From a candidate division WOR-3 bacterium (lineage in GTDB: Bacteria > Hydrothermota > Hydrothermia > UBA1063 > CAJXJZ01): a DNA stretch of 64,000 bases. The notes beneath the pieces were generated by a model. That model made no database searches. It had not been told where the DNA came from and saw only the letters and a list, made by a program, of their open reading frames with translations. Location: positions 79,483 to 143,482 of the forward strand of contig JALSNX010000030.1 of NCBI GenBank assembly GCA_026986775.1, read 5' to 3'. Below are positions 89 to 36,094 of this stretch, one piece after another. The first letter of the stretch is position 1; each line of letters starts with the position of its first letter. Position numbers and translations under genes: made by a program.

Positions 89-2077
89 TCATGGCTTTGT
101 CCTCCTGCCAAACATTACATATAGATATTGAAACTTACTGAAGGTTTTGTCCTTACCTTTTTGGATGGGAATACCTTCTCTTTTGTTTTTACCTTTTTTA
201 GCAAGATAAACTGCAATGTCTCTGCTTAAAGCTTTTATAGTAATGTCAGGGCATTCACTGGTTTTACAGTGTATCGTAACGATAGGTTTACCTTCTCTAT
301 AATATCTTTTGAGAGAATCACATTTTAAATAAATAGTGGCCGAACTTAACATCCTATCAGAAACAAGAATGGGGCCAATTTTGCCTGAAACCTGCATTTT
401 GTAATATGCCCTGAACTTTAAACCATTTATCACTTTAATCTCAAAATCATAAGCATTCCCATGTGTATGAGAAATTTTACACAATCCTGCTTGATAAACT
501 TTATTCTTCGCTTTTCTCTCTACATCTTCCTGTGGCTTTCTTTTATCCTCTCTATAAGAAGGTTTTTTATCATTTCTTGTGTCTGGCTTTTGCTTGCGTT
601 TCTTTATTTCCTTTTCGTTTTTTGTCCTTTTCTTACGCTCTCTGTTTTTTGATTGAGGCTTTCTCTTACTTTTTTGCTCTTCTATTAAACTATTTATTAT
701 CTTTAGTAAGTGGTCCCTATCCAATACCTTTACATTTCGGGATGTTCCATTAACATCAATGTAGAGTTGCCCTGTGTTAACAGGGTAAAAGTAATATGAA
801 TATAAATCTACACTATCTTTTATGTTAAAAATGAGTTCTTTTCTCAAATACCTGAGTGTTTTCACTCCCGTTAAATCTTTTTTTGTTAATTTCTCTATAT
901 TTGATTTAATCAAGGTATCAATCAATACCGTATCGTTGTCCTTTAAGTACAACTCTCCAACTTTTAAGTTTTTCAAAAACATTATGCTATATGTATCAGG
1001 TCTTAAAGTTACTGTTTTTCCATAACTTATCTTATATTCGTTTTCACGATTCCTTAAATAGATGATATGCGAGAGTATTTTATCTTTTACCCGGACAGTG
1101 GCTGTTGGGGTGGATGTTTTGGAATAAAGATAAAGAAATAGACCTGCCCCCAGAGTAAGTAAGAGAAACAGGGATACGAAAATAAGTTTGTTCTGGTGCT
1201 TTTCTTTTTTTCTGATATACTTTTGAGTGTATGAATTTACCACTTTATCCTCTTTGAATAAGGCATCGTTAACTTTCAAAAGTATATAGGTATTGTTATC
1301 ATCACAGAGATTATCACGAATGGCATTGTCAAGATGTCCATTGAGTGTGGTTGCTACTTCTTTAAGGTTGTTTGAGTTTTCAAAAATGTTAAATAAAATG
1401 CTATGGCTAAGAAAACTCTCCCAAACACCATCTGTGCATAGTAGTATAATGTCACTTTCATTTAATAGCACAGTTCTAATGGGGGGAGAAAAATCACTCT
1501 GGGAAGCATGAAGTGAATGTTGAAGTTGGTTCTTCGCTGGATGCTGAGAAAGCTGGTCAAGGGAGAGAAGTTTCTGAGCATAGAGTTGCCATACGAGACT
1601 GTGGTCTTCTGTTAAAAGCCATAATTTTCTCTCCTTTTCAGGCAATTCTTCAGGAAGGGGAATTGCTTTATCTAACCTGTGTAATGATGGGGTAAATACA
1701 TATATTCTGGAGTCTCCTATCCATGTATAAGTAAAACTAAATTTTCCCCCTATCCCTTTCTCCAATACTCCTGCTACAACAGTGCTTCCCATATCTACAC
1801 CTGTTTCCTTGATCTTCTTAGCCGCATATTGTATACCAGTTTTTAATATTTGCTTTGCACTAAATTTTGAGGAATACTCATTGAATACTTCGTTAAGGGA
1901 TTGAACAACTATTTTACTGGCAATATCACCCTTTGAATGTCCCCCCATTCCGTCTGCAACAACAACTAATAATTTATTACCCTTTATGGATACTCCGTAT
2001 GCATCCTCTTGATACTTACGAGGACCTCTGTGATGCCTAAAATAAATGAACTTCTCCTCATTGTTACTAACTTTCAT
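89..2077 (-). CDS. PP2C-family Ser/Thr protein phosphatase, membrane-anchored, with a K/R/E-rich linker and an uncharacterized C-terminal domain
   Basis: The N-terminus carries PP2C motifs (QEDAYGV, VVVADGMGGH, ILLCTDGVWE). A transmembrane helix LIFVSLFLLLTLGAGLFLYLY follows, then a long lysine/arginine-rich low-complexity stretch and a ~150-aa C-terminal domain of unknown type. The ORF track begins at a TTG (2086). I chose the in-frame ATG at 2077, which is preceded by GAGG. It is the last gene of a minus-strand operon. Confidence 0.8.
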   Translation of the reverse strand: MKVSNNEEKFIYFRHHRGPRKYQEDAYGVSIKGNKLLVVVADGMGGHSKGDIASKIVVQSLNEVFNEYSSKFSAKQILKTGIQYAAKKIKETGVDMGSTVVAGVLEKGIGGKFSFTYTWIGDSRIYVFTPSLHRLDKAIPLPEELPEKERKLWLLTEDHSLVWQLYAQKLLSLDQLSQHPAKNQLQHSLHASQSDFSPPIRTVLLNESDIILLCTDGVWESFLSHSILFNIFENSNNLKEVATTLNGHLDNAIRDNLCDDNNTYILLKVNDALFKEDKVVNSYTQKYIRKKEKHQNKLIFVSLFLLLTLGAGLFLYLYSKTSTPTATVRVKDKILSHIIYLRNRENEYKISYGKTVTLRPDTYSIMFLKNLKVGELYLKDNDTVLIDTLIKSNIEKLTKKDLTGVKTLRYLRKELIFNIKDSVDLYSYYFYPVNTGQLYIDVNGTSRNVKVLDRDHLLKIINSLIEEQKSKRKPQSKNRERKKRTKNEKEIKKRKQKPDTRNDKKPSYREDKRKPQEDVERKAKNKVYQAGLCKISHTHGNAYDFEIKVINGLKFRAYYKMQVSGKIGPILVSDRMLSSATIYLKCDSLKRYYREGKPIVTIHCKTSECPDITIKALSRDIAVYLAKKGKNKREGIPIQKGKDKTFSKFQYLYVMFGRRTKP

Positions 2078-3515
2078 GCCCCACAACCTCTAATTTACCT
2101 TCAAATACCAGATGACCTTTTATCCTTTGGGAAAGAGATAGAATCGGATTTAAAACCTCTTTAAGTTTAGACGGAGTTACACGGATATTTACTAAATTAG
2201 CATGTGTTTGAACTGCCTCAACAAAGCTTGGCCCACTTATTTTACGCACTTTTTCTATAATCACAGCCTGTGGCAAGGTTATTATACCCCCAAATGGGCC
2301 GGGTATGTTCACGATTTTGCCTTCTTCGTATTCTATCATGGGAGCCACATAGGTGCTGTCTGTTTGAGGAAGCGGAAGTGGGATTTTAATCCTGAAAACT
2401 ACTTCATATTTTATCTTTTCTTGTTCTTGTTTCGCCTGTTGCTCTATAAGCATTGGCGATGTGTCTGTGGTTTTAGCATCTATTTGCATTTCGGACAAAG
2501 CATTCCTGAAATTATTTAAGAATTCCTCTGCATTTTTGTATCTTTCATCTATGTTAAGGGAAGTGGCTTTTTTGATAACTCTGGCTATAGGCTGTGGTAA
2601 ACCATACTTTCTTTCTGCTTGAGACACTATATCTGGAAAATTAATAGTTAATGGATTGATGCTTACTATATCCATGTAATTTTGCCAGTTCCATGTGCCA
2701 AGCCATATCTCAAATGTCAGTACTCCAAGAGAATAAATGTCAATACGTGGGTCTTTCCGATATTTTAACATATCCCGAAAATATACAGGATCAAGGTACC
2801 TGCTTGTCCCTACCAGTGAGGTTTTGCCAAAGGTTGTAGTAGTTCCCGTTGCAGATTTTGCGGTTCCGAAATCGGAAAGAACATAGTATATATTTTGCTC
2901 GCCTCTGTCCATTATGAGTATGTTTTTTAAACTCAAGTCTCTATAGACTGTGTTCATTGCATGAAGATACGAAAGGGTTTTTGCTACCTGTTTTATAATC
3001 TTAATTTTTTCTTCCACCGGGAAATTGTCCTTTCCATACTTTTGCATGAGTGCTTCAACATCGCCGTAAGCAAGTTCCATTATGTAATAGGGAAAAGTTC
3101 TCTCTTCTCCTCTGACTCTCATATGGAATTCACCATAGTCAACAATACCAACTATACCAGGATGTGAATATGAAGTTAAAATTTTTATCTCCTTTCTTAA
3201 CATCTCCTCAGATTTTTCCACTAAAGTATCATCAATAAAGGAAGCAAATTCTATCAAGGATGCAGCACTTATAGGCAACTTCAAAGCATACACACTCTGG
3301 TTTCTCGGCTCCTTAACTTTAAGAATGTAGGCGAACCCTCCCTTAGCTACTACGCCTTCTATCAAATACCTTCTATTTTTCAAAAAGATCTCTTCAAGTG
3401 GAATGTTCTTTATCCGATATAAAAAGTCTATATCTATCAGACTATTACTGCCACAATATGGGCATACTTCAAAAGTTCTGCTTATAAATCTAAAACATTT
3501 CGTGCACCTCTTCAT
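2067..3515 (-). CDS. Zn-ribbon plus divergent Ser/Thr protein kinase-like protein (possible pseudokinase or atypical kinase)
   Basis: N-terminal CxxC...CxxC zinc ribbon (CTKCF...CPYCG). The kinase fold is recognisable: Gly-rich loop AKGGFAYI, VYALKL lysine, DFG as SDFGTA. The catalytic loop reads VYRDLSLKN in place of HRDLKPEN (His to Tyr, Lys displaced). The start overlaps the upstream gene by ATGA. Confidence 0.7.
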   Translation of the reverse strand: MKRCTKCFRFISRTFEVCPYCGSNSLIDIDFLYRIKNIPLEEIFLKNRRYLIEGVVAKGGFAYILKVKEPRNQSVYALKLPISAASLIEFASFIDDTLVEKSEEMLRKEIKILTSYSHPGIVGIVDYGEFHMRVRGEERTFPYYIMELAYGDVEALMQKYGKDNFPVEEKIKIIKQVAKTLSYLHAMNTVYRDLSLKNILIMDRGEQNIYYVLSDFGTAKSATGTTTTFGKTSLVGTSRYLDPVYFRDMLKYRKDPRIDIYSLGVLTFEIWLGTWNWQNYMDIVSINPLTINFPDIVSQAERKYGLPQPIARVIKKATSLNIDERYKNAEEFLNNFRNALSEMQIDAKTTDTSPMLIEQQAKQEQEKIKYEVVFRIKIPLPLPQTDSTYVAPMIEYEEGKIVNIPGPFGGIITLPQAVIIEKVRKISGPSFVEAVQTHANLVNIRVTPSKLKEVLNPILSLSQRIKGHLVFEGKLEVVGHES

Positions 3516-4885
3516 GATAGTTCATCCTTTTTAAAGTATTTTTCTATTAAAAATACTGTGCTTCCTGTGGATAGGTATCCTCCTGCATCCAGAAGCACCT
3601 GTCTTTTACCTATGACAATGTTGTTATAGCGGGAAAGATTTCTCGGGAGGTGGCCGTTTACATCATCAGTAAAATATATATCGGTGGATTTCTTTATTAA
3701 TTTCCCGTGTATAGAAGACATCCATGGATCATTAGAAAACATTATATTTCCCTCTTTTCTTCCCACAATTAATTCCCAATTTGTTGTCCTCTTTACATCA
3801 ATAAGTATAGTTGTATGGCTGAACAGCTGAGATATACCAGGATACCTTACCACCTTAACTCCATCAGGTAGATTACTGGTTTTAACCTCATTTGCTAAAG
3901 TAATTATATGTAGCGCAACGTATTTAAATGGGCTTCCACAATGCTGGCAAAAATTCGCTGGAGGGTCTGTGGTTTTTCCACAATCCAGGCAAGTATAAGG
4001 TCCTTCTTCCACAAGCGGTGTTATGTGTTTAATTGATATACTGGATTCTGGTTTTTTCCCTAATTGTGGGCAATACTTTTGAATTAGAGTTTCGGCGAAA
4101 GGCCTTTCGTCCGGGAAAAAAGTGGTTGCTTCTATTACCAGGTCCCTTATATTCTTCGGTGATATTTTTTTGTACCAGTTCTCAAGAACTTTACTACCCT
4201 TATTGAGATATTCTGCTTTTATTGACTTATTGCACCCTGAAAAAGGCATTTCTCCTGTTACTATTACACCTATTGTCAATCCCATACTGAAAACATCGTG
4301 TAGTTTTTTCATGTTCTTTACCTGTTCTCTCGGTGAACTTCCACGAATCTTTGAGAGACGGGCACCCGCCTGCGCCGACAAATCAAACATGGGGAAGTAT
4401 TCAGGTGGCATATAACATTCCGTTCCTGCAAATGACAACCCAGTTTGACTGTCTCGCCATGAAGCCACCCCAAAATCAAGTAAAATCGGTATATTATTTT
4501 TTACCCTTATGTTTTCAGGCTTTATATCCCTGTGCACAATCCCTATACTATGTAATTGTGAAACCGCATCAACAATCCTTGCTATGAAATCTATATCCTC
4601 CGTGTTCTTATAGTAAGCAATAGGGTCATCAGGAAGGTATTCCATTACATATGCTTTTTGATCAAACATTATTTCTTTTATGTCAACAAGATACGGTATT
4701 TTATACTTCTTTCTTATCTCATTTAGTTTTGCAGCCTCTTTGAAGAATCTTTCAAGTATATACTCCCGGGTTTCCTTTGAAACTTTAATGGCATATTTTT
4801 GCCCTTCATGCTCACCAAGATACACGATTCCAAATCCCCCTGTCCCAAGAGTAGTCAATATCCTATATTTTCCTATCTTCTTCAT
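3512..4885 (-). CDS. Ser/Thr protein kinase with internal Zn ribbon and C-terminal FHA domain
   Basis: Canonical Hanks kinase motifs GTGGFGIVY, AIKV, HRDIKPEN, DFGVA and GTECYMPPE. A CLDCG...CQHCG zinc ribbon follows. The C-terminal FHA-like block has GRKEGNIMF...SSIHGKL. ATG start. The stop overlaps the downstream gene (ATGA). Confidence 0.85.
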   Translation of the reverse strand: MKKIGKYRILTTLGTGGFGIVYLGEHEGQKYAIKVSKETREYILERFFKEAAKLNEIRKKYKIPYLVDIKEIMFDQKAYVMEYLPDDPIAYYKNTEDIDFIARIVDAVSQLHSIGIVHRDIKPENIRVKNNIPILLDFGVASWRDSQTGLSFAGTECYMPPEYFPMFDLSAQAGARLSKIRGSSPREQVKNMKKLHDVFSMGLTIGVIVTGEMPFSGCNKSIKAEYLNKGSKVLENWYKKISPKNIRDLVIEATTFFPDERPFAETLIQKYCPQLGKKPESSISIKHITPLVEEGPYTCLDCGKTTDPPANFCQHCGSPFKYVALHIITLANEVKTSNLPDGVKVVRYPGISQLFSHTTILIDVKRTTNWELIVGRKEGNIMFSNDPWMSSIHGKLIKKSTDIYFTDDVNGHLPRNLSRYNNIVIGKRQVLLDAGGYLSTGSTVFLIEKYFKKDELS

Positions 4886-4893
4886 AGCACACT

Positions 4894-6897
4894 TTATTTT
4901 ATAATTTCTTCTGGTATCCTAAAACTAAGTCCATAGGTCTCATTTTCACTTCCACTAAACACTATACTTTGCTCTATAGCAACTACATTGAAGCAGGAAT
5001 CTCTAACGGATGGATTGACAATAAAGTCGGGAGAACCACTGTATCCGTGATATGTTTGTGCAAAAATTTTAACATAATCTATTTCAACATCAATAATTAA
5101 ACCTGCCGTGTGAGCTCTGGTCCAACTAGGATATCCAATAACACCTACAAAATCTCCTTCTTTAACGCTATTGGAGAGTTTAAATGGGGTTGCTACTTCC
5201 TTTGCTATTTTAGCTGGGAGTTTAAAATATGCCACGGAATCCGAATACTTTTTAAAGTCAATTCTATTAGAAAACTTCCATTCTGAAACACTTATCGGCA
5301 AGATTCGTTTCTTCACCAGTTCTTTACCTAATTCCTCTATATCTATGTCTTTTTGAAAACCCTTTGCTAACAAATCTTTTACATCTTCTGACAGGTCGGT
5401 TGGGTTATCTATATAAGTCCTGTTCAACCCTATAAAAGCAATGGCTTTGGTGTTGTCTATACCGCCAAGAACATGGGCTATTGTAATAGCATAAACTTCA
5501 CCCTTATTATTATAAGCAAAAAATCCCGTCCCAGCACTTTCCTTTATACTATCATCTTCCTGAAAAATTGTTACAATTGGAAAAACAGAAGGGATTGATT
5601 GAGTCTTTGTAAAATTATCAATATCTTTCACTATATCTCTTACCTCGTTTAATGCTTCTTTTGTTTCCCCCCTGTTACTCAATTCCTCCAGTTTCTGCTT
5701 CAATTTGTCAACCTCATTTTTTAATACCCTAATCCTTCTGTCTTTTCTACTACTCACTTGCTTCAATCTTTCAATTTCTTCCTTCTTTTTTGCTATTTCA
5801 TTCTTTACACTGTTTAAACTGTCCATGTAAGCCAGGTATGTATTTTTAAGATCGGCAATTTTGCTGTTTAAATTGGCTACATCTTTCCTATAAGAACTTA
5901 ATTTATTACTCCATGCAATAGCCTGAATCTGTGAAAACCCGCCAAAAGCAGGTATTCCAAGGAGTGCAATGACAACAAAAACCCTCATCGTGGTCTGGAG
6001 CTTTTTGTATTCGTTATGCATTAACTGGGCAGTTCTGGATACTGTTTTGGGATGGAAAATGGACTTCTTCTCAGACTCATATTCTATTTTAAAAGTGGGC
6101 CCAAATCCAGAAACAAGACTCAGTTCAGCATTATTTGGCAGTTGTGTGGCAGTAGTATAAGGTGTATTGTTAATGGCAAAAGCATACTTCTGAGCAATCG
6201 GTGTATAGAACAGAGAATTTCCAACAACCATTATCTTGCCATGTCTTCTGCTAACAACCCGCCAGTTGTCTCCCAGAACAACATCGGCCCAGTTTTTATC
6301 TCTTCCTATATTTATCTCAAATTTTTCAAATGTTTTCTCCTCCCCTTTCTGCCATTCCTGATTTACAGTATCATTTGGAATAATCTTAACCTTTACACTC
6401 ATTGCAGCCATGGAAATCGTTTTCATCAGAGATTGTGTTAATGCCTGACTTTCTGTCATGGGTTTTCCCTGTATGGTTGACCTTAATGATTTTTCCGAGC
6501 CAAGTTTGAAAATAGATGCCAGAAAAGCGAGTGCAAAAAACATTGTGGTATACAAAAGTCCAGCATAAGCATAAAGATGAGAGCCACCTTTCACAGCCAC
6601 AAGGAGTTCAGTTCCTAACAAGGCGGTTATTATGAAAAGGATGACACTTCTTATATACACGAGAGTTTTAGTCGTATGTAGAAAAAGGGTTATAAATATA
6701 ATTACAGATACCGCAATCACAATAATCCCATCAATTCTCGTAAATGCTCCTTGTGAAAATTCCTTAAGAAAGTCAAATACATTCTTCTCCGCTTGAAAAC
6801 CGTGGGAGAGAAACGCTATTAAAGACCCAGCAGGTATACGTGGCCAGTTTAAGAATAAACCAAAAAGAGCAATTAATACAAGAAACGCTGCCAGCAT
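4894..6897 (-). CDS. polytopic membrane protein with cytoplasmic FHA domain, coiled coil and C-terminal trypsin-like (S1) serine peptidase domain
   Basis: Four N-terminal hydrophobic helices. FHA signature INIGRDKNWADVVLGDNWRVVSRRHGKI. A further TM helix (VFVVIALLGIPAFGGF), then a K/E-rich coiled coil. The C-terminus has His (ITIAHVLGG) and Ser (HGYSGSP) motifs resembling TAAHC / GDSGGP of S1 proteases. It is one nucleotide from the upstream gene's stop. Confidence 0.6.
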   Translation of the reverse strand: MLAAFLVLIALFGLFLNWPRIPAGSLIAFLSHGFQAEKNVFDFLKEFSQGAFTRIDGIIVIAVSVIIFITLFLHTTKTLVYIRSVILFIITALLGTELLVAVKGGSHLYAYAGLLYTTMFFALAFLASIFKLGSEKSLRSTIQGKPMTESQALTQSLMKTISMAAMSVKVKIIPNDTVNQEWQKGEEKTFEKFEINIGRDKNWADVVLGDNWRVVSRRHGKIMVVGNSLFYTPIAQKYAFAINNTPYTTATQLPNNAELSLVSGFGPTFKIEYESEKKSIFHPKTVSRTAQLMHNEYKKLQTTMRVFVVIALLGIPAFGGFSQIQAIAWSNKLSSYRKDVANLNSKIADLKNTYLAYMDSLNSVKNEIAKKKEEIERLKQVSSRKDRRIRVLKNEVDKLKQKLEELSNRGETKEALNEVRDIVKDIDNFTKTQSIPSVFPIVTIFQEDDSIKESAGTGFFAYNNKGEVYAITIAHVLGGIDNTKAIAFIGLNRTYIDNPTDLSEDVKDLLAKGFQKDIDIEELGKELVKKRILPISVSEWKFSNRIDFKKYSDSVAYFKLPAKIAKEVATPFKLSNSVKEGDFVGVIGYPSWTRAHTAGLIIDVEIDYVKIFAQTYHGYSGSPDFIVNPSVRDSCFNVVAIEQSIVFSGSENETYGLSFRIPEEIIK

Positions 6898-6898
6898 T

Positions 6899-7900
6899 TT
6901 ATTCCTCCTGTATTGTTTTTATATGCAGTTTTGCTTCAACAGGAACTCCATTTTTCTTCACAATCCTAATGATGGTGTTATTATCAAGAATCACGGGGTC
7001 TTCCTTTATCTCAACGTAAAAGCTCTTCCCACTTAAAGGAACCAGATACCATGAACCATTGGTTAAAGGCTGAACTTTTAAATGATGTTTTGAAACTCCA
7101 CTTTGAGCAAGTATCAATTCTTCAATTTGCAATAGTTCCATAAGAGTCTCTCTACCCAGAATAAATTCCCAATTTACCGTTAATATATCGTTTTTCCCCG
7201 GCATGTTTAATACCCTTATTCGTGGTTTCCCGGTGGTGAAAATATTAAATACATCTTCACCAGGACCGGCCATTACCGTTTTAATCTCATTAGTCTCTTG
7301 CATCATATCTTTGTGTTCTGCTGAACCAAGTAGCTGAAACCCCACTGCTCCAAGATAAAACTCTGTTCCACTCAAAACAATAAGTCCTTTATTGTATTTG
7401 ACAAAGAGTTTACCCTCCGTTTGAGAACTGATTTTTCTAATCATTACCTTTGGATAAAGTGTAGAGTTGTATACCATAAAGGCAAAACCCTCAAATGCTC
7501 CCACACCAGCAAAAAACGGCTCGCACTTTTTAAGTAATACATTCCCTTCAAGATTATCGTAATTAGATGACTGCCACTCAAACTCAATTTTCATTGACGA
7601 TTTTTCTTCTGTTTCATAACTTCTCACTTCCTCTATTTGTTGTTGAGCAGGCATCAGTGGAAACCCACAGAACTTGCAGAAACTTGCTTCAGGGGGATTC
7701 TCTTTTCCACATTTTGGACATTTAATTCCCTTCCCACCAATATTAGATAACTTTTTATGCCTTATTCCCTCTTCCACAGACACTGACAGAGATGTTTCAG
7801 CAGGAAATTCATATCCACAGACAGGGCACTTATCCAGGCCCTCTTTTACGAATGACCCACATTGTGGACACCTTCTTCCCAAAAGAGTTGATCCTTCCAT
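6899..7900 (-). CDS. double zinc-ribbon protein with C-terminal FHA-like domain
   Basis: Two CxxC-N-CxxC ribbons (CPQCG...CPVCG; CPKCG...CKFCG). A divergent FHA-like C-terminus has ILGRE...VSKHHLKV...NNTIIRI. A strong RBS (GGAGG) sits 6 nt before the ATG. Confidence 0.55.
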   Translation of the reverse strand: MEGSTLLGRRCPQCGSFVKEGLDKCPVCGYEFPAETSLSVSVEEGIRHKKLSNIGGKGIKCPKCGKENPPEASFCKFCGFPLMPAQQQIEEVRSYETEEKSSMKIEFEWQSSNYDNLEGNVLLKKCEPFFAGVGAFEGFAFMVYNSTLYPKVMIRKISSQTEGKLFVKYNKGLIVLSGTEFYLGAVGFQLLGSAEHKDMMQETNEIKTVMAGPGEDVFNIFTTGKPRIRVLNMPGKNDILTVNWEFILGRETLMELLQIEELILAQSGVSKHHLKVQPLTNGSWYLVPLSGKSFYVEIKEDPVILDNNTIIRIVKKNGVPVEAKLHIKTIQEE

Positions 7901-7914
7901 GTTTACCTCCTCTT

Positions 7915-9159
7915 CTATTTTTTATTTAATAATGCAATTGCAAAAACATCGTTTTTCTGGCGAGCAATGTCCAGTGGACTCTTGCCATATTTGTTTTTTA
8001 TATTAGGTTTTGCTCCAGCCAAAATGAGCTTCTTTATAATGTCATAATTACCCTGTAAAACAGCATAGTGCAGTGGTGTGTTTCCATCCATATCTGCAAT
8101 ATTCGGGTCTGCTCCGTTTAAAAGTAGTGCTTTCACAGAATACCCAGAGCCGTGCAAAGAAGCAATATGCAGTCCCGTTCTCCCATATTTATCTTTCCAC
8201 GCCACATCAAAATCATTTATCAAGTGAGAGACTTTATCTGTATCATCATCAAAGAAAGAAGAAAACAAAGGAACCCAGGCATATTCATTTTTTACCGTAG
8301 AATCACTGTGATAAAGTATAAAATCAACACTCCAGTAATGCCTGTGTTTCCATGCATAATCTATGGGGGAAAGACCATTACTATCCCTTTTACACTCAGG
8401 ATTAAACTGTAAAATCTTAATTAAAAAGGATGAATCTTCCTGCATTGCTGCATAATGCAGTGCTGTTTTTCCATATCTATCCCCATTATTTATAGCGTCG
8501 CTAATACCCTTAAACTTCTTTAACATATAAACAAAAATTGGGTAATCACCCATTTTTATACTTAACATAAATGGAGTCATACCAACATCATTAGAAATAC
8601 TCACAGACGCTCCATTTTCCATAAGTAACACAGCCAAATCATCTCTTTTATTTCTTATGGCCATATACAGCGGTGTATAGCCTTCCAGATTGAATGTGTC
8701 CCAGTTAAACTTACTCACTGAGGATAGAAATACCAAGACACCACGAAAATTTCCGGCATCCACCATAGTATGGAGCACATTATTACCATAGGTATCTTTC
8801 AGGGTAAAATCAGCACCATTATTCAGAAGGTATATAAAGACATTGATAAGGTTAGAGTCCTTTGCTGCATAAAACAATGGTGTCTGATTGTTTTTATCAG
8901 TGATATTGATATCTGCTCCACGCTTAATAAGAAAATCTACAACTCTGATATTTCCGCATTTAACTGCAACATGAAGCAGTGAAGGATTAAAATACCCATT
9001 ATAAAAACTGAACTTGTAATCAGGTCCAACAACATACAGAAAACTGTCAAGGACTGAAATATTACCCTCTGTTATTGACGAATATAACACTCTTTCTTCT
9101 TCTCTGTCACCAAGAGAATTTCCCTCAAGTAGGGCAAGAAAAAGTATTAAAACCAGCAT
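7915..9159 (-). CDS. secreted ankyrin-repeat protein
   Basis: N-terminal signal-like peptide MLVLILFLALLEGNSLG. It contains at least 8 ankyrin repeats (e.g. GNTPLHYAVLQGNYDIIKKLILAGAKPN, GRTGLHIASLHGSGYSVKALLLNGADPN). AGGAGG RBS. It ends 14 nt before the next minus-strand gene, so it is probably co-transcribed with the FHA/kinase/PP2C genes. Confidence 0.85.
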   Translation of the reverse strand: MLVLILFLALLEGNSLGDREEERVLYSSITEGNISVLDSFLYVVGPDYKFSFYNGYFNPSLLHVAVKCGNIRVVDFLIKRGADINITDKNNQTPLFYAAKDSNLINVFIYLLNNGADFTLKDTYGNNVLHTMVDAGNFRGVLVFLSSVSKFNWDTFNLEGYTPLYMAIRNKRDDLAVLLMENGASVSISNDVGMTPFMLSIKMGDYPIFVYMLKKFKGISDAINNGDRYGKTALHYAAMQEDSSFLIKILQFNPECKRDSNGLSPIDYAWKHRHYWSVDFILYHSDSTVKNEYAWVPLFSSFFDDDTDKVSHLINDFDVAWKDKYGRTGLHIASLHGSGYSVKALLLNGADPNIADMDGNTPLHYAVLQGNYDIIKKLILAGAKPNIKNKYGKSPLDIARQKNDVFAIALLNKK

Positions 9160-9270
9160 CTACTGCACGCCTCCTTCTGAATTTTTGCCCCATTAAATAC
9201 TGGCAATTTAAATGCCAAAGGCTCACATCGCTTAAATACACACATTTCCATACATATCTCCCTCTTAAAC

Positions 9271-9304: not shown

Positions 9305-9358
9305 CCCGAAGGTGACATAAAAAGTAATTGTTCCAATCTTTAATAGATAATATAGATA

Positions 9359-9394
9359 AAGAGCCCCTTCGTTACAATGAAGGGGCTCTTTTTG
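9359..9394 (-). terminator. GC-rich hairpin immediately after the stop of the lipoprotein gene (bidirectional intrinsic terminator candidate)
   Basis: agagcccctt...aaggggctct forms a 10-bp stem. The plus strand has TTTTT. The minus strand has TTTATCTATATT. It is followed by the promoter region of the ankyrin operon. Confidence 0.55.
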
Positions 9395-9399
9395 AAGTA

Positions 9400-10884
9400 T
9401 CAGTGTGGCAACCATTTAATCCTGACCCAATCTACCTTTAAAGTTGAAGCAGATAGTTGATCAGCCCACTTCAAGAATGCAATCTTGACCTTTTTAATCC
9501 TCGCCGTGCTCGTTACAGATTTAGAAAAAACATCTCCAGTATTCACAAACAATGTATAGGTCTCCCCTGTTTTTCTTACACCAATAACACCACTGAAACT
9601 CTGAAAATCGTTACCTGTCCAGTCACTACTACCATCGGGGTAATCTATTTGAATATGTCCCTGCTGACTCGCACAACAACCACCACCAGAACTATCATAC
9701 CATTTAAACCGTATAATAGGGGTGCCGTTTTCATCAAGAAGGGATATATCAAGTATACCTTCTTCGTTGTTATCATTCGTGCCGGTGATAATATAGGCAC
9801 TTGCTTCAAAGTTATCTGTAAGAAGGTCTATGGTTGTGTCAAGGTCATGGATGATTTCTGGACCATGCCATCCAGAGCCTGGGCCATAACTCAGCGGATA
9901 TATGGTGCTGTTTGAATAACCTATGTGAGCATTAGTGGGAGTTCCAGGTCCGTAAGCCCAACCTGAGTCAAAAGGATTGCCGTTAAAGTGGTCAAAGATA
10001 ATCGGAGGTTGTTCCACAAACTTTGCTATAACTGACAGGTTGCTATTCATCGTAACTGTGCAATTTGGAGAAGACCCACTGCAGGCACCATCCCATCCAT
10101 TAAATAAATACCCTGCCTCTGGCGTTGCTGTTAACGTTACAGTCGTGCCTGATACATAATCCTCGGAACAGTCAAGCCCACAGGATATGCCCGGCGGGTC
10201 GCTTATAACAGTCCCTCTCCCTGTTTTTGAAACATTAAGGGTGTAGGTTGTTATCTGGGTATTTCTGAAGTTTGCTATAATGTGCTTATCAGTATTTGCC
10301 ACCACATAAGCAGTATCTCCATGAGTTTTGAATGTATCACCAGAAAATCCATCAAACATAACATTCTGGGATGTTGATTGTGCAATAATTTTAACTGTAT
10401 CACCTTCCTCATATTCACCTGCACAGTCAGAACCACAGGATATACCACCCGGGATACTGAAGACATACCCATCACTGGCACCACTGCCTGAACGCTGAAC
10501 AGTAATAGTATGAGTGTTTGAGTTACTATTGATAAAATACGCCACAATGTTGTAGTCCTGATTCATCGTAAGGGTAATCTCACTTTCACTTGACTGGATA
10601 TCTCCACCCCATGACACAAACCTTCCACCCCAACCTGCATAAGCGTTAAGGGTTACCTCTGCGCCCTTCTCAAAGTTAGCAGTATATGGGAGGTTAACAT
10701 CTGAGCCGTTTACCTTAACATATCCTTCACCTTCACCTGTTTTTTCTATATGAAGTGTATATTGGCTCTGGTTACCACCACCTCCATTATCACCCTCATC
10801 AGTATCAGTAGACTGTGTGCTACAGGAAAGGACAAGCAGCAGTATTGGTATTATGTGGTATAGTTTATTTTTTACACTTATCAT
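9400..10884 (-). CDS. lipoprotein with three InlB-B-repeat-like (GISCG...C) domains and an uncharacterized C-terminal domain
   Basis: I chose the ATG at 10884, which has an AGGAGG RBS (the track start at 10893 is a GTG). The signal peptide plus lipobox is LLLVLSCS. Repeated modules match the bacterial InlB B-repeat pattern: G.V.S.PPGISCG.DC...Y..GTTVTLTATP..GY.F.GW.G.CSG. Confidence 0.7.
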   Translation of the reverse strand: MISVKNKLYHIIPILLLVLSCSTQSTDTDEGDNGGGGNQSQYTLHIEKTGEGEGYVKVNGSDVNLPYTANFEKGAEVTLNAYAGWGGRFVSWGGDIQSSESEITLTMNQDYNIVAYFINSNSNTHTITVQRSGSGASDGYVFSIPGGISCGSDCAGEYEEGDTVKIIAQSTSQNVMFDGFSGDTFKTHGDTAYVVANTDKHIIANFRNTQITTYTLNVSKTGRGTVISDPPGISCGLDCSEDYVSGTTVTLTATPEAGYLFNGWDGACSGSSPNCTVTMNSNLSVIAKFVEQPPIIFDHFNGNPFDSGWAYGPGTPTNAHIGYSNSTIYPLSYGPGSGWHGPEIIHDLDTTIDLLTDNFEASAYIITGTNDNNEEGILDISLLDENGTPIIRFKWYDSSGGGCCASQQGHIQIDYPDGSSDWTGNDFQSFSGVIGVRKTGETYTLFVNTGDVFSKSVTSTARIKKVKIAFLKWADQLSASTLKVDWVRIKWLPH

Positions 10885-10901
10885 ACCATACACCTCCTTT
10901 T

Positions 10902-11744
10902 TTATTTATTCTTAACACTCTCAAGATACTCTACCACGTCTTCATGCTCCATATCTCTGGCATAATCAAGAGGAGTTTTACCATCATTATCCTTCACATT
11001 CACCTCTGCTCCATTGGAGATTAAATACTTAACTACTTCTATGTGACCATTCTGGGCTGCATAATGTAGTGGGGTCTTACCATCGCCGTCTTTCACATTT
11101 AAATCTTCCCCTGTTGAATCAAGTAAATACTTGACTATGTCCAGATGTCCTTTTTCAGCTGCGAGGTGAAGAGGGGTATAAGTCGAGTCCACTTCATCAT
11201 TGTAAAATTTACCTCCGCGCTCAATGAAGTATTTCGCAATTTCAAAATTGCCATAATATATTGCATAATAGAGAGGAGTGGCGTTGTCATAATATTCACT
11301 CGTGCCTATAGCGTTTATATCGGCGCCATGGTCAAGGAGAACTTTTGCCACATCAATTTTTCCATACTTGGCTGCTACATGTAGAGGTGTTTGCCCTTCA
11401 ATATTCTCACTACCTATATTTGCTCCATTAATGATTAAATACTCTGCTATTTTTGGAAAACCATATTCAGCAGCCATGTGAAGAGGCGTGTTTCCCTGAC
11501 TATCCTCTATGTTGACATCAGCTCCAGAATTTATCAAGTATTTTACAACGTCTAAATTACCACCCATGACCGCATAATGAAGTAGTGACCATTCCCTCAT
11601 CATTGAAGTGTCTCTGGTATTTACATCCACCCCACTTTCCACAAGCCTTCTTACTTCCTCTATATTACCTTCTTTTGCTGCACTGAATATGTCTCCACTT
11701 ACCTGTGTTACAAGCAATATGTATCCAAGTATGGCTCCTATCAT
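10902..11744 (-). CDS. ankyrin-repeat protein with N-terminal hydrophobic signal/anchor
   Basis: At least 7 ankyrin repeats (GNTPLHMAAEYGFPKIAEYLIINGANI, GKTPLHYAAQNGHIEVVKYLISNGAEVN and others). N-terminus MIGAILGYILLVTQVSG. AAGGAGG RBS 7 nt before the ATG. Confidence 0.85.
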   Translation of the reverse strand: MIGAILGYILLVTQVSGDIFSAAKEGNIEEVRRLVESGVDVNTRDTSMMREWSLLHYAVMGGNLDVVKYLINSGADVNIEDSQGNTPLHMAAEYGFPKIAEYLIINGANIGSENIEGQTPLHVAAKYGKIDVAKVLLDHGADINAIGTSEYYDNATPLYYAIYYGNFEIAKYFIERGGKFYNDEVDSTYTPLHLAAEKGHLDIVKYLLDSTGEDLNVKDGDGKTPLHYAAQNGHIEVVKYLISNGAEVNVKDNDGKTPLDYARDMEHEDVVEYLESVKNK

Positions 11745-11877
11745 ACTTTTACCTCCTTTTCATTTCTTCTATAACAATTATTCTGCCAGTTAATCCTTGA
11801 AAGAAAGTAATCTATTGCATTACATGGTATTAAGAGGTTTAAATCTGTAGAGCAACTTTATTTAAGTTAACACAATC

Positions 11878-11921: not shown

Positions 11922-12476
11922 TTAAAAGAAATCCTGAGTTACATATATCTCACCATCTTCTGTAATAAACACGCCTATCCCTTCTTTTTCAAAATTGGCA
12001 TTCAGAATATTTTTCCTGTGGCCCTTGCTGTGCATCCATCCTTCTATGATTTCACTGGCAATGGCTTCAGTGGTTTTATATATGTATGTTCTTTTGTCCG
12101 AGGGGTATACATAATAATGGCTGAATGTGTAAGTTTTAAATATGTTTTCTCCCAGACCAATTAAAATATACCCGTTTTTACTTCTTTCTATTTTGTAGTG
12201 ATGTCTGAGAGCTCTCTCATCAGGACCTTCTCCTTTTTTGTTTATATGGGAAAAGTAATTGTTTCTGGCCATGTCTTCGCTGTGCTCTCGCGCAATTTTT
12301 GCAAGTTTTTTGTCCCACTTTAACGGTTTTAGCCCTCTTTTTTTTCTCTCCCTGTTTACGAGAAGGTGAATCTTTTTTTCAAGATATGTGCTTAAAGGGA
12401 TATTCTTTTTGGAAGATAGAGCAGATATGCACGATTCAAGTAGAATGAGTATTGCTATGAGATAAATCTTCTTCAC
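11922..12476 (-). CDS. secreted CAP/SCP (PR-1-like, YkwD-type) domain protein
   Basis: GTG start with a GGAGG RBS. Signal peptide. CAP-domain hallmarks: HSEDMARNNYFSH, GENI, IIEGWMHSKGHRKNILNANFEKEGIGV. Confidence 0.75.
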   Translation of the reverse strand: MKKIYLIAILILLESCISALSSKKNIPLSTYLEKKIHLLVNRERKKRGLKPLKWDKKLAKIAREHSEDMARNNYFSHINKKGEGPDERALRHHYKIERSKNGYILIGLGENIFKTYTFSHYYVYPSDKRTYIYKTTEAIASEIIEGWMHSKGHRKNILNANFEKEGIGVFITEDGEIYVTQDFF

Positions 12477-12547: not shown

Positions 12548-12576
12548 TTGACAGAATATTCCTTATTATGTATATT
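12548..12576 (+). promoter_or_regulatory. sigma-70-like promoter candidate (TTGACA-17-TATATT) for the acidic protein / valS operon
   Basis: ttgacagaatattccttattatgtatatt. The -35 and -10 hexamers are separated by 17 nt. It lies about 35 nt upstream of the AAAGGAGG RBS of the 12609 ORF. Confidence 0.35.
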
Positions 12577-12608
12577 ATTGACCTGACATATATTAAAGGA
12601 GGCTTGTA

Positions 12609-12977
12609 ATGGGATTTACTTTTGAAGATATTATGGGAATATGGGCTCAGGTTACTGACTTCCCTGACGGATGGCAGGACCATATAGAAGAACTTCTTTT
12701 CAGAATCAATGAACTTAAGGACCAGGAAGAGTATTCCGGTTACAGAGAGAAGATTGATGAACTTCAAAATGAGGTCATTTCCTTAAAAAAGGATATTCTT
12801 GACACTGTTAATGATGCTCTGGAAGGGGCATTATCGCAGGACGATATTGAAAGCCTCTTCAGAGAATACGGTGATATGCTGTCTGAACTTGAACAGAAGG
12901 TCATAGAACTTGAACTTGAACCAGAAGAGGAGGATGAATCTTATTTCTGGGGCGATGAAGAAGAGGAGGAATTTTAA
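12609..12977 (+). CDS. small highly acidic hypothetical protein (coiled coil, poly-E C-terminus)
   Basis: AAAGGAGG RBS 7 nt before the ATG. Coding-like codon usage. It ends 5 nt before valS, and its C-terminus is EPEEEDESYFWGDEEEEEF. No domain recognised. Confidence 0.55.
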   Translation: MGFTFEDIMGIWAQVTDFPDGWQDHIEELLFRINELKDQEEYSGYREKIDELQNEVISLKKDILDTVNDALEGALSQDDIESLFREYGDMLSELEQKVIELELEPEEEDESYFWGDEEEEEF

Positions 12978-12982
12978 GGATT

Positions 12983-15610
12983 ATGGAACTTGAAAAAACC
13001 TATAATTTTAAAGAAGTAGAGGAGAGGATTTATAAGAAATGGGAGGAGGGTGGATATTTTAAAGCGAACCCGAAAAGCAATAAGAAGCCTTATACAATAA
13101 TGATGCCACCTCCCAATGTTACGGGGATTATTCACATGGGACATGTGCTGGATAACACTATACAGGATATTCTCACACGCACAAAGAGAATGCAGGGGTA
13201 TGAAGTCTTATGGCAACCCGGAATTGACCATGCTGGTATTGCTACTCAAAATGTGGTAGAAAAACAACTTGCAAAGGAAGGTAAAACGAGATTTGATGTT
13301 GGGAGGGAGGAGTTTGTAAAAAGAGTATGGGAGTGGAAGGAAAAATACGGGGGCATCATCTTAAAGCAATTGAGGAAATTGGGTGTTTCCTGTGACTGGT
13401 CAAGGACGAAGTTTACCCTTGACCCTGACATGTCAAGGGCCGTTCTTACTGCTTTTAAAATACTCTACGATGAGGGTCTTATTTATAAAGGTAAGAGGAT
13501 TATCAACTGGTGTCCAAGATGTGGTACAGCCCTTGCAGATGATGAAGTGGAATATGTGGAGGAAAAGAGCCACCTCTGGTATATAAAATATCCCCTTGTA
13601 GATAAAGATGGCTTCATTGTTGTGGCTACAACAAGACCTGAGACCTATCTGGGTGATACTGCAGTTGCCGTGAATCCCCATGACGAGCGGTATAAGCACC
13701 TTGTTGGTAAAAAGGTAAGACTTCCTCTCGTTGACTGGGACAGAGAAGGTGTGCCTCCTGAAATTCCTATAATTGCAGACGAGCATGTGGATATGGAATT
13801 CGGAACCGGGGCTGTGAAGGTAACACCTGCCCATGACCCCAATGACTTTGAAATCGGGGAGAGGCACAATCTTCCAAAGGTCGTTGTTATGGACGAAGAT
13901 GCCAGAATGAATGAAAATGCAGGGCCATATAAGGGCCTTGACAGATATGAAGCAAGGAAGAAAATAGTTCAAGACCTCAAGAATGCTGGTTTTCTTGAGA
14001 AGATTGAAGACCATACCCACTCGGTAGGAACATGTTACAGGTGTCATACAGTAATTGAGCCCTATCTTTCCTCCCAGTGGTTTGTGAAGATGAAGCCACT
14101 GGCTGAACCGGCTATAAAAGGGGTAGAGGAAGGGGATATTAAACTCATTCCTGATTATGCCAACAAGATTTACTTTCACTGGCTCCGCAACGTGAGGGAC
14201 TGGTGTATTTCAAGGCAGATATGGTGGGGACACAGGATACCTGTTTATACTTGTAAGGATTGCGGACATGTTGAGGTATCGGTTGATAAGGTGGAAAAAT
14301 GTCCCAAATGTGGCTCTACGAACATAAAACAGGATGAAGATGTCCTTGATACATGGTTCTCCTCATGGCTCTGGCCTCTTTCAACACTTGGATGGCCCAA
14401 AGAGACGGATTTCTTAAAGAAGTTTTATCCAACAGATGTACTCGTTACGGGATGGGATATTCTGTTTTTCTGGGTTGCCCGTATGATAATGGCAGGCTAT
14501 CACTTTAAGAAAAAAGAGCCGTTTAAAACCGTTTATCTTCACGGCATCGTAAGAGATGAAAAGAGGAGAAAATTCTCAAAGTCACTCGGTAATTCACCGG
14601 ACCCGCTTGAACTGATTGAAAAATATGGGGCTGATGGTGTTAGAATGGGTATGATGCTCATTACACCTGAGGGTCAGGATATTATCTTCTCATCTGACAG
14701 AATGGAGGTTGGAAGGAACTTTGCCAATAAAGTCTGGAATGCTGCAAGATATGTGCTTATGAATACGGAAAATGTGAATCTCAAAAGGTTTGTGGACATA
14801 AAGGATGAGCTGGAAATAGAGGATAAATGGATTCTCACAGAACTTTCTGATACGGTAAAGAGGGTTTCAGAGGGAATAGAGAACTTTGACTTTAACGGTG
14901 CTGCATGGACATTATATAACTTCTTCTGGAAAAAATACTGCGATTTTTATCTTGAAATTATAAAGGGAAGACGTGATAAGGATGTAGCCCTTACAGTGGC
15001 AGTATTTGTTCTTGATGTATTTTTGAGATTGCTTCATCCTTTTATGCCGTTCATTACTGAGGAACTTTATTCCTATCTTCCGTCAGAAAATAAGGAGGAG
15101 GCTATAATAATTGCTCCATGGCCTGATTTTTCAGAAAAATACGAGGAAGATGCACTTTTAATGAAGAAGATAATAAGGGTAATTGAATCTATGAGAGAAA
15201 TACGGGGTGAGTTTGGCCTAAATAAAAAAGAGATTGTTTTTCTTGAATACATAAATGATGAGATAACAAACGTTCTGGATAAAAAGCCTTACATGCGGAA
15301 ATTGGGTCTGTTTGAGATGATAAAAGACAGTGTGGAGGAAGGTCTTTTCAGTACAGTATTTTACCTTGATGGCAGGGAGTACAGAGTTTATCTTCCTCAG
15401 GTTGATATAGAAAAAGAAATTCGTAAAACAGAGAAGGAAATAGCGAGCCTGAAACTACTTATAAAGCGTCAGGAAGCGAAGTTGCAAAATGAGAACTTTT
15501 TGAAGAAGGCTCCATCCGAGGTGGTGGAAAAGGAAAAGAAAAAATACGAAGATTTTAAAAATAAACTTGATGGCCTTTTGAAACACCTTGAGAGGTTACA
15601 AAATGGATGA
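12983..15610 (+). CDS. valS: valyl-tRNA synthetase
   Basis: Class I aminoacyl-tRNA synthetase HIGH motif (PPNVTGIIHMGH) and KMSKS motif (KFSKSLGNS). Its 875-aa length and C-terminal coiled coil are typical of ValRS. Confidence 0.96.
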   Translation: MELEKTYNFKEVEERIYKKWEEGGYFKANPKSNKKPYTIMMPPPNVTGIIHMGHVLDNTIQDILTRTKRMQGYEVLWQPGIDHAGIATQNVVEKQLAKEGKTRFDVGREEFVKRVWEWKEKYGGIILKQLRKLGVSCDWSRTKFTLDPDMSRAVLTAFKILYDEGLIYKGKRIINWCPRCGTALADDEVEYVEEKSHLWYIKYPLVDKDGFIVVATTRPETYLGDTAVAVNPHDERYKHLVGKKVRLPLVDWDREGVPPEIPIIADEHVDMEFGTGAVKVTPAHDPNDFEIGERHNLPKVVVMDEDARMNENAGPYKGLDRYEARKKIVQDLKNAGFLEKIEDHTHSVGTCYRCHTVIEPYLSSQWFVKMKPLAEPAIKGVEEGDIKLIPDYANKIYFHWLRNVRDWCISRQIWWGHRIPVYTCKDCGHVEVSVDKVEKCPKCGSTNIKQDEDVLDTWFSSWLWPLSTLGWPKETDFLKKFYPTDVLVTGWDILFFWVARMIMAGYHFKKKEPFKTVYLHGIVRDEKRRKFSKSLGNSPDPLELIEKYGADGVRMGMMLITPEGQDIIFSSDRMEVGRNFANKVWNAARYVLMNTENVNLKRFVDIKDELEIEDKWILTELSDTVKRVSEGIENFDFNGAAWTLYNFFWKKYCDFYLEIIKGRRDKDVALTVAVFVLDVFLRLLHPFMPFITEELYSYLPSENKEEAIIIAPWPDFSEKYEEDALLMKKIIRVIESMREIRGEFGLNKKEIVFLEYINDEITNVLDKKPYMRKLGLFEMIKDSVEEGLFSTVFYLDGREYRVYLPQVDIEKEIRKTEKEIASLKLLIKRQEAKLQNENFLKKAPSEVVEKEKKKYEDFKNKLDGLLKHLERLQNG

Positions 15611-36034: not shown

Positions 36035-36094
36035 GGGGCCCTCCGGCTTCCCCCCACACGATACCCATCTTTCGGAGGGCCCTTCTTTTTTATT
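36035..36094. terminator. bidirectional intrinsic terminator between convergent genes
   Basis: ggggccctccg...cggagggccc forms a 10-bp GC stem with a long loop. It is followed by TTCTTTTTTATT on the plus strand and by an A/T-rich run on the minus strand. It sits between the stops of the 35804 ORF and the sigma-54 activator gene. Confidence 0.6.

Follow-up and report, generated by a model that had tools for sequence, protein, structure and literature searches.

Results

Organization of the locus

The DNA analyzed in this work, hereafter called the window, is a stretch of 64,000 nt from a candidate division WOR-3 bacterium (assembly GCA_026986775.1, contig JALSNX010000030.1, positions 79,483 to 143,482 of the forward strand). 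It contains six consecutive open reading frames (ORFs), all on the minus strand and running from 9159 to 89, which bring together kinase, phosphatase and FHA domains with a membrane protease and are referred to here as the cassette. From 5' to 3' they encode an ankyrin-repeat protein (gene 1, 7915-9159, 414 aa), a Zn-ribbon/FHA adaptor (gene 2, 6899-7900, 333 aa), an FHA-membrane-protease protein (gene 3, 4894-6897, 667 aa), a kinase followed by a Zn ribbon and an FHA domain (gene 4, 3512-4885, 457 aa), a Zn-ribbon-kinase (gene 5, 2067-3515, 482 aa) and a PP2C phosphatase with a transmembrane (TM) helix (gene 6, 89-2077, 662 aa). All six assignments come from Pfam, complemented by hhalign for gene 2, by alignment and an AlphaFold model for gene 3, and by orthologues for gene 4. 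The spacings between the ORFs are, in order, 14, 1, 8, -4 and -11 nt. The last value rests on the ATG of gene 6 at 2077, which is preceded by GAGG and was chosen by the gene callers on the parent contig; a TTG at 2086 would give a spacing of -20 nt and a protein of 665 aa. The original prediction for this locus, made by reading the sequence, had given the last gap as about -10 nt and the others as measured here, and the domains it named in the six ORFs, the FHA and protease calls included, are supported by Pfam, orthologue alignments and the structure model. Its count of two Zn-ribbon proteins was wrong, since three carry Cys4 Zn ribbons, the 457-aa kinase having one between its kinase and FHA domains.

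Upstream of the cassette, a hairpin on the minus strand (9358-9391) with a 13-bp stem containing 7 G-C pairs and followed by a T-rich tail resembles a terminator of the preceding Flg_new_2 lipoprotein gene, and would mark the 5' boundary of the cassette unit. Reading of the sequence also revealed a Shine-Dalgarno-like AAGGAGG on the minus strand (9170-9176), 10 nt ahead of the start codon (ATG) of gene 1; since this codon is directly preceded by an in-frame TAG, the ORF cannot begin further upstream. Apart from the hairpin, scans for sigma-70 promoters and terminators gave background levels only. On the parent contig (L001, a 218-kb ENA contig), no terminator-like site was found 3' of the PP2C gene, and four co-directional genes continue beyond it, outside the window (a 51-aa ORF, a 145-aa ankyrin protein, a 198-aa membrane protein and a 278-aa protein). 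Therefore, six genes are the minimum for the transcription unit, which may be longer.

The FHA-membrane-protease protein

Gene 3 begins with a four-helix membrane domain (residues 1-132; 6502-6897), delimited by a hydropathy scan, whose polar residues W18, D56, T75 and E97 are invariant in an alignment of 13 sequences. The following segment (residues 133-277; 6067-6501), assigned by Pfam and alignment, consists of an invariant Ser/Thr-rich juxtamembrane motif, GSxKSLxSTxxGxPM[T/S]ES, and an FHA domain with the motifs GR...SxxH...N/D-G, of which G198, R199, S216 and H219 are invariant in the same 13 sequences. Lys and Arg residues lie on the loop side of both TM4 and TM5, and for this reason the FHA loop is placed in the cytoplasm. 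A fifth TM helix (residues 303-324) then leads into a stalk of about 110 residues, predicted to be helical or coiled coil from hydropathy, the AlphaFold model (helices at 283-381, 386-407 and 411-431) and profile matches to coiled-coil proteins; helix and stalk together span residues 303-437 (5587-5991), and the length of the segment differs among orthologues. The remainder of the protein (residues 438-667 and the stop codon; 4894-5586) is an S1, trypsin-fold serine protease domain according to its motifs, AlphaFold and Foldseek. Its Pfam Trypsin_2 score of 20.1 bits is under the cut-off of 27.6 bits. His475, Asp553 and Ser620, within the motifs GTGF...AHV, SD..A and GYSGSP, are invariant in four orthologues, and the AlphaFold model, built on four orthologue sequences, has a pLDDT of about 80 over residues 438-667. 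A Foldseek search of the PDB with this model returned only trypsin-fold proteases (E = 3e-7 to 1e-4), namely the trypsin domain of IgA1 protease, HtrA1, DegP/DegQ/DegS, V8, Esp and Spl, and a sequence profile search of the PDB retrieved SplB and SplD. No PDZ domain was matched by Pfam, and the protein ends with the protease domain. Given four TM helices, a cytoplasmic FHA loop, TM5 and the stalk, the protease should lie outside the cytoplasmic membrane, presented on a coiled coil. The extracytoplasmic half contains about one-third as many invariant positions as the cytoplasmic and membrane half. The membrane FHA-protease fusion claimed in the original prediction is thus upheld by the invariant triad, the model, the Foldseek matches and the TM scan.

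The best structural matches, the HtrA/DegP/DegS proteases and the staphylococcal V8/Spl proteases (MEROPS S1C/S1B), share with gene 3 the trypsin fold and the His-Asp-Ser triad, and DegS and DegP, which are membrane-anchored and periplasmic, likewise act in the envelope. Identity to these proteases is 10-18%. Unlike the HtrA-type proteins, gene 3 has no C-terminal PDZ domain; unlike all of these proteases, its domain would be tethered by about 110 residues of coiled coil to a five-pass membrane protein with a cytoplasmic FHA domain. Next to its cassette, lineage L003 also encodes the two parts as individual proteins (2999-5647 of that locus): an exported trypsin of 584 aa, and a 287-aa protein with four TM helices and an FHA domain that is clearly paralogous to the N-terminal part of gene 3. 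Such a split copy supports the idea that the halves of gene 3 are functionally linked.

The adaptor, the kinases and the phosphatase

Gene 2 contains two Cys4 Zn ribbons (residues 11-29 and 60-77; Pfam DZR/Zn_ribbon matches) and a conserved middle domain (residues ~100-195) with the invariant motif GxEFYLGAVGFQLLG, for which no match was obtained in Pfam or among PDB sequences. Its C-terminal FHA domain (residues ~245-325) scores 20.8 bits in Pfam, the cut-off being 20.7, and matches the FHA profile of gene 3 in hhalign with E = 3e-4. The protein has no TM segment and is predicted to be a cytoplasmic adaptor; a word-indexed search among 5.8e9 proteins found it in 5 clusters. The FHA domain of gene 3 scores 21.4 bits with Pfam FHA and 24.6 bits with Yop-YscD_cpl. 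An association with type VI or type III secretion systems (T6SS, T3SS) was considered for the latter match and rejected, as no such genes are present and the match reflects the FHA fold. The third FHA domain, in the tail of gene 4 (residues ~365-450), falls below Pfam detection in the window protein; the L009 orthologue passes at 23.7 bits, that of L023 scores 19.1 bits, and the profile of this domain matches that of the gene 3 FHA with E = 1.9e-5. GR and SxxH, the signature of phosphothreonine (pThr) binding, are conserved in all three. Pfam, orthologue scores and hhalign together bear out the three separate FHA domains that had been proposed.

Both kinases possess the catalytic Lys, HRD-type Asp, Asn and DFG expected of the kinase fold. 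Gene 4 is of the Hanks type (residues 7-269; Pfam Pkinase, 102 bits), with GxGxxG, AIK, HRDIKPEN and DFG all kept, and its Cys4 Zn ribbon (residues 299-316) has a weak Pfam match to DZR. In gene 5, an N-terminal Cys4 Zn ribbon (residues 4-21) precedes the kinase domain (residues ~50-345; Pfam Pkinase, 94.7 bits), which has Lys79, YRDLSLKN, DFG and a Thr-rich activation loop; two orthologues have a plain HRD. Gene 5 had earlier been called only kinase-like, and the kinase fold stands while the doubt in that label does not, since the Lys, the catalytic Asp, the Asn and the DFG are kept; the kinase appears to be catalytically competent. The conserved beta-rich domain at its C-terminus (residues 367-481) gave no match to any Pfam family, the cold-shock domain (CSD) included, even at E <= 10. 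No TM segment was found in either kinase by the hydropathy scan, and no PASTA domain by Pfam.

The phosphatase call for gene 6 is confirmed by a PP2C domain (residues ~8-275; Pfam PP2C_2, 53.6 bits) with the conserved metal-binding motifs (YQED, DGMGG, TDG and DDNNT); NCBIfam Stp1_PP2C_phos scores 119.8 bits, under the equivalog cut-off of 230. A single TM helix (residues 298-316) is followed by a Lys-rich, poorly conserved tail of about 345 aa that is predicted to be extracytoplasmic, an arrangement that resembles PstP in architecture only. This ectodomain differs by lineage, being an unassigned family, a SPOR domain (L015, 41.8 bits), ankyrin repeats (L023) or absent. SPOR domains bind septal peptidoglycan, and a family-2 glycosyltransferase gene follows the cassette in L015.

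The ankyrin-repeat protein

The ankyrin repeats of gene 1 are recognized by Pfam Ank_2 with E = 3e-73. A classical signal peptide is found in the orthologue of L003, and the N-terminus of gene 1 is hydrophobic and signal-peptide-like; the protein is presumed to be exported. Gene 1 is matched best by its syntenic counterparts in L003 and L012, at 147 and 128 bits, compared with 88.6 bits for the paralogue of the same genome, and the three syntenic proteins share motifs outside the repeats. An ankyrin gene lies directly upstream of the core genes in four lineages; in the window, L003 and L012 these genes are syntenic orthologues, and in L023 the gene is a fragment. In L023, moreover, ankyrin repeats are fused to the PP2C behind its TM helix and a Pro-rich linker. 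As the PP2C must face the substrates of the cytoplasmic kinases, the repeats of this fusion would be located on the outer side of the membrane, and the fusion itself associates them with the module. In L019, kinase 2, a soluble PP2C and three TM-ankyrin proteins are encoded consecutively, and TM-ankyrin genes flank the L003 cassette on either side.

Conservation of the cassette

The order Zn-ribbon/FHA, FHA-membrane-protease, kinase-Zn-ribbon-FHA, Zn-ribbon-kinase and PP2C-TM is kept in five other lineages with full context and partly in four more. Identities, to the window or among lineages, are 22-54% and G+C contents 29-58%; the proteins of L003, L009, L010 and L012 align end to end with those of the window at 33-51% identity. 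All six genes, from the ankyrin gene to the PP2C gene, occur in L003 and L004-L008 (34% G+C), in L012 (29%) and in L023 (58%). For L015 and L023, the evidence is an identical gene order and domain content. L015/L016 (46%) and L010 (38%) have the five-gene core, preceded in L010 by a third kinase and a Zn-ribbon-TM protein. L009, which is the same as L011 (37.5%), is a candidate division WOR-3 metagenome-assembled genome and was the only match in a scan of genome contigs; its contig begins at the FHA-protease gene and continues through the PP2C gene. The partial contigs of L017 and L018 are consistent with the core order, and in that of L019 an ankyrin fragment, not kinase 1, precedes kinase 2. 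Gaps between genes range from -14 to +31 nt in every locus. Seven lineages were examined for the motifs of the kinases, Zn ribbons and PP2C, and all have kept them intact. The conserved core therefore comprises five genes, and the ankyrin gene is a frequent but not universal sixth partner. Since the same order recurs in independent and divergent contigs, the arrangement did not arise by chance; co-localization, which the original prediction had proposed to survey, was found in every related contig with enough context.

The family is rare. The word-indexed search found gene 3 in four clusters among 5.8e9 proteins, a full HMMER search of 1.84e9 cluster representatives yielded 13 full-length members with four TM helices, FHA, TM5, coil and protease, plus fragments, and a search started from an alignment of 8 sequences gave two metagenome loci, one of them new.

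Below this family, the HMMER search returned more distant relatives, about 50-70 cluster representatives of 490-640 aa, with a conserved N-terminal segment followed by FHA, an RPYK motif, a TM helix, a coiled coil and trypsin, the protease motifs being SGTGF..ARHV, SDWA and GNSGGP. These proteins of Bacteroidota-like genomes (e.g., P0148 of GCA_020629275.1) have the domain order of gene 3 at 22-23% identity. Two of their neighbourhoods were examined. That of L013 (GCA_020629275.1) encodes a ZnR-ZnR-FHA protein of two Zn ribbons (ZnR) and an FHA domain (212 aa), a kinase-FHA (435 aa), an FHA-TM protein (419 aa), the FHA-TM-coil-trypsin protein (550 aa), an exported 347-aa protein, a PP2C with a TM helix and tail (627 aa) and a TM kinase (661 aa), with BACON and Por_Secre_tail genes nearby; that of L014 encodes a ZnR-ZnR-FHA protein (223 aa), a kinase-FHA (452 aa), a TM kinase (535 aa) and the FHA-trypsin protein. 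The set is thus similar to the cassette in uniting a ZnR-ZnR-FHA protein, a kinase-FHA, a PP2C-TM-tail and a second kinase. Several features set it apart: the four-helix domain is missing from the N-terminus of the protease protein, as are the middle domain from the adaptor and the Zn ribbon from kinase 1; the second kinase is a receptor kinase with a TM segment; and there is no ankyrin gene, the exported 347-aa protein standing in its place in L013. From these comparisons, the window cassette appears to form one branch within a wider and so far uncharacterised family of such systems in FCB-group or Bacteroidota-like bacteria.

Genomic setting

The cassette has a G+C content of 0.34-0.38, versus 0.40-0.44 further along the window. 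A genus-level relative, GCA_027038175.1, shows 75.6% DNA identity to window positions 12548-17642 (valyl-tRNA synthetase, GatA and IF-2B). To the left of 12548 it has an aconitase gene and an AAA_16-TPR gene, where the window has a CAP gene, an ankyrin gene, the Flg_new_2 gene and the cassette; to the right of 17642 it lacks the 954-aa and 2388-aa genes of the window. Two direct repeats were also found, one of 139 nt (96% identity; window 11619-11757 and L001 17053-17191, beyond the window) and one of 137 nt (88%; L001 5815-5951 and 17307-17443). They sit at the 5' and 3' ends of two ankyrin paralogues of 280 aa (10902-11744) and 145 aa, which are identical over their first 42 residues, and they bracket 11.9 kb holding the Flg_new_2 gene, the six cassette genes and the 51-aa ORF. 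The repeats may be the footprint of a duplication or recombination, or a substrate for excision. From the break in synteny, the drop in G+C and the flanking repeats, we infer that the cassette is accessory and lies in a rearranged segment. Searches of IMG/VR contigs, 50,697 phage genomes and 72,556 plasmids yielded no relatives of the cassette, and no integrase, phage or other mobile-element gene was seen among the neighbouring genes scanned.

Upstream of the cassette, on the minus strand, lie the genes for the Flg_new_2 (InlB B-repeat) lipoprotein (9400-10893), the 280-aa ankyrin protein (10902-11744) and a CAP/SCP-family protein (11922-12476), whose products are predicted to be exported or lipoproteins; none is conserved beside the cassette in other lineages. 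Further along the same strand, a 612-aa protein with FHA (74 bits), GAF, sigma54-activator and HTH_8 domains (36093-37931) is encoded next to an 831-aa Pkinase-TPR protein (37931-40426), stop and start sharing one base, which suggests a kinase-controlled sigma-54 enhancer-binding protein. On the plus strand, the window encodes a giant surface-type protein of 2388 aa with Ig-like Big domains (20843-28009) and another of 2516 aa with FG-GAP repeats and a Por_Secre_tail sorting domain of the type IX secretion system (28252-35802). The sorting domain is what would be expected in a member of the FCB group.

Discussion

Bacterial modules of Hanks-type kinases, FHA domains and PP2C phosphatases control cell-wall growth and the firing of the T6SS, and we know of no described module in which an FHA reader is fused across the membrane to a protease. 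No paper on the FHA-protease fusion or on the cassette was found in the searchable collection. A survey of conflict systems by the Aravind group reported kinases with a Zn ribbon and a beta-rich domain together with PP2C and vWA in actinobacteria, and FHA domains as sporadic among effectors; the arrangement of the cassette is not described there (PMC7159879). The cassette identified in this work is a real and uncharacterised form of bacterial eukaryote-like signalling by Hanks kinases, PP2C and FHA domains, whose novel partner is a membrane-spanning protease.

The best explanation of these data, to which we assign a probability of about one half, is that the cassette encodes a trans-envelope Ser/Thr phospho-signalling machine coupled to an extracytoplasmic protease with an ankyrin partner, any direction of signal flow and any substrate being deductions at this stage. 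The original prediction had proposed a self-contained pThr switch whose output was not evident. The switch is supported, and the second part has to be revised, because the parts predicted to lie outside the cytoplasmic membrane are limited to the stalked S1 protease, the ankyrin protein and the C-terminal domain of the PP2C, which varies among lineages (SPOR or ankyrin in others), and these point to the cell envelope. We hypothesize that the kinases phosphorylate themselves, gene 5 having a Thr-rich activation loop, and also membrane-proximal Thr sites, such as those of the invariant Ser/Thr-rich juxtamembrane motif of gene 3. The three FHA domains would read these marks, so that the Zn-ribbon adaptor, kinase 1 and the protease protein assemble at the membrane, and the PP2C would dissolve the complex. 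TM5 and the coiled coil could then relay the state of assembly to the protease outside and so affect its oligomerization or activity. The exported ankyrin protein would be the partner of the protease there, most likely as inhibitor or substrate adaptor. A precedent for this last role is found in Bdellovibrio, where the exported ankyrin-repeat protein Bd3460, a self-protection protein, is encoded beside the secreted serine-type peptidase Bd3459, binds it and inhibits it (PMC4686830). Bd3459 is a DD-endopeptidase of a PBP4-like family, whereas the cassette protease is of the S1 type, and no kinase, PP2C or FHA protein is encoded there. The analogy therefore bears only on the role proposed for the ankyrin protein.

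Several observations weigh against this interpretation. Everything said here about phosphorylation, pThr binding by the FHA domains, protease activity, topology and co-transcription is deduced from sequence. Pfam support is at threshold for two of the three FHA domains, and the FHA domain of gene 2 has no canonical Asn in the NG motif. The ankyrin gene is absent beside L010 and L015. In one clade of gene 3 (P0132-P0135, in L015/L016), the His and Ser of the protease are lost while the kinases, the adaptor and the PP2C are intact, and catalysis is therefore dispensable in some versions. Finally, the accessory status of the cassette is as compatible with a conflict system as with an envelope regulator.

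Within the preferred reading of a phospho-signalling machine coupled to the envelope, the outside parts may act as output or as input. In one tentative version, the machine would be an inside-out protease switch, in which the membrane FHA domain reads cytoplasmic pThr and gates the S1 protease on the far side through the coiled coil, with the exported ankyrin protein to inhibit it or act as its adaptor. Of the 13 family representatives, 9 strictly retain the His-Asp-Ser triad, the window included, which favours proteolysis as output. The four-helix domain, with its buried Asp and Glu, could add a sensing or channel function.

It is possible, although we would not place much weight on it, that information runs in the opposite direction, with the protease-fold domain, the ankyrin protein and the PP2C ectodomain as an input that responds to a ligand in the envelope, such as misfolded or foreign protein or peptidoglycan-associated cues. 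Binding or cleavage would alter the coiled coil and TM5, the FHA domain or juxtamembrane motif thus exposed would recruit the kinases, and their soluble targets, contacted via the Zn-ribbon and beta domains, would be the true output. The clade with a dead protease keeps all other components, as expected if the domain mainly binds, and the PP2C bears different ectodomains in different lineages, which is common for sensor domains; both observations favour a sensing role of the outside parts. The lower number of invariant positions in the extracytoplasmic half of gene 3 (about one-third) and the TM receptor kinase that is the second kinase of the Bacteroidota-like version agree with this direction as well. 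However, with the triad kept in most representatives, catalysis has been selected there, no cytoplasmic effector, either DNA-binding or enzymatic, is encoded by the cassette, and the extra domains of the kinases have no recognisable output fold.

The main alternative to an envelope-coupled signalling machine is a toxin-antitoxin-like conflict or defence system of the KKP (kinase-kinase-phosphatase) type, an explanation that we regard as unlikely. The kinases would be growth-arresting toxins restrained by the PP2C and freed upon phage attack, with the four-helix/protease protein as effector or trigger. In the KKP systems of Pf prophages, a kinase-FHA protein, a second kinase with another C-terminal domain and a PP2C (PfkB, PfkA and PfpC, respectively) are likewise neighbours (PMC11341870), the PP2C of the cassette lying two genes downstream of gene 4. 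The location in a non-syntenic segment of lower G+C bracketed by direct repeats, the rare and patchy distribution, and the matches of the kinases to the PADLOC kinase models PD-T4-6 and mad6 also agree with this view. Nevertheless, gene order differs, the PP2C being first in the published search (PMC11341870), and the cassette has no PfkA-type CSD and no nuclease or NTPase effector, its PP2C is membrane-anchored, it includes the extra conserved ZnR-FHA and FHA-protease genes, and it is not on a prophage. The PADLOC and NCBIfam kinase matches cover the generic kinase domain and are far under the family cut-offs. PADLOC-DB 2.0 otherwise gave only generic ankyrin and coiled-coil matches, that of the protease protein being to its coiled-coil region, and a weak match of the PP2C domain to a candidate model (PDC-M21C, 39 bits), with nothing for the adaptor or the protease domain; no PADLOC or NCBIfam system was matched beyond generic domains. 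The lack of relatives in the IMG/VR, phage and plasmid sets and of mobile-element genes among the neighbours scanned also speaks against such a system, and a protease outside the cytoplasmic membrane would be odd for an abortive-infection effector. The colinear divergence of all five core genes (22-54% identity, G+C 29-58%) suggests long-term retention instead.

We consider it improbable that the cassette is an equivalent of the actinobacterial division and cell-wall cluster, in which case it would control peptidoglycan synthesis or septation and its protease would act on wall-associated proteins. In Mycobacterium, Corynebacterium and Streptomyces this operon has the order fhaA-fhaB(fipA)-pstP-rodA-pbpA-pknA-pknB, and it resembles the cassette in combining two adjacent Hanks kinases, a PP2C of PstP architecture (one TM helix, then an extracellular tail) and two FHA proteins, one anchored in the membrane and the other a soluble adaptor. 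In actinobacteria the components assemble at the membrane in a pThr-dependent manner, which for the cassette is a proposal. The SPOR domain on the L015 PP2C and the glycosyltransferase gene that follows the cassette there point in the same direction. Similarity to the actinobacterial operon is at the domain level only, however, and no rodA, ftsW or pbp gene was found in the window or in or beside any related locus. The cassette kinases are soluble with Zn ribbons, not TM proteins with PASTA domains, and score 71 and 115 bits with PknB_PASTA_kin against a cut-off of 450, that of NCBIfam FhaB_Rv0019c not being reached either. In the cassette, the FHA protein of the membrane has five TM helices and ends in an extracytoplasmic S1 protease, and an exported ankyrin protein is among the partners. 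In addition, the cassette is missing at this position in the related genome, which is unexpected for an essential regulator, although it could lie elsewhere there.

A further comparison is offered by the T6SS switch PpkA-PppA-Fha1/TagH of Pseudomonas and Agrobacterium, in which an envelope machine becomes active when an FHA protein binds a membrane component that has been phosphorylated (PMC3953482). There, too, a kinase, a PP2C and an FHA reader are encoded together, one of each kinase and FHA domain where the cassette has two kinases and three FHA domains; no T6SS genes occur in any locus, and no window protein matched TIGR03354 (VI_FHA). The resemblance to the mycobacterial Fha/PstP/Pkn and T6SS Fha/PpkA/PppA modules that had been noticed for this locus is thus sound as an analogy and does not extend to shared rodA/pbpA, PASTA or T6SS genes, none of which is present; the partners in the window are instead an ankyrin protein and an FHA-protease fusion. 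As for a chance juxtaposition of signalling genes in a domain-rich genome, which might be imagined since the window also holds the FHA-sigma54/Pkinase-TPR pair and several further ankyrin genes, it is refuted by the conserved synteny, with an identical order in all six full-context lineages, four partial ones mostly consistent with it, and overlapping or near-abutting frames.

If the coupling of phosphorylation to the envelope protease is true, the cassette would provide a direct route from cytoplasmic phosphorylation to envelope proteolysis, or the reverse, and would give a defined role to exported bacterial ankyrin proteins. Its hosts are poorly known uncultivated lineages, and a distant version of the system is widespread in Bacteroidota-like genomes.

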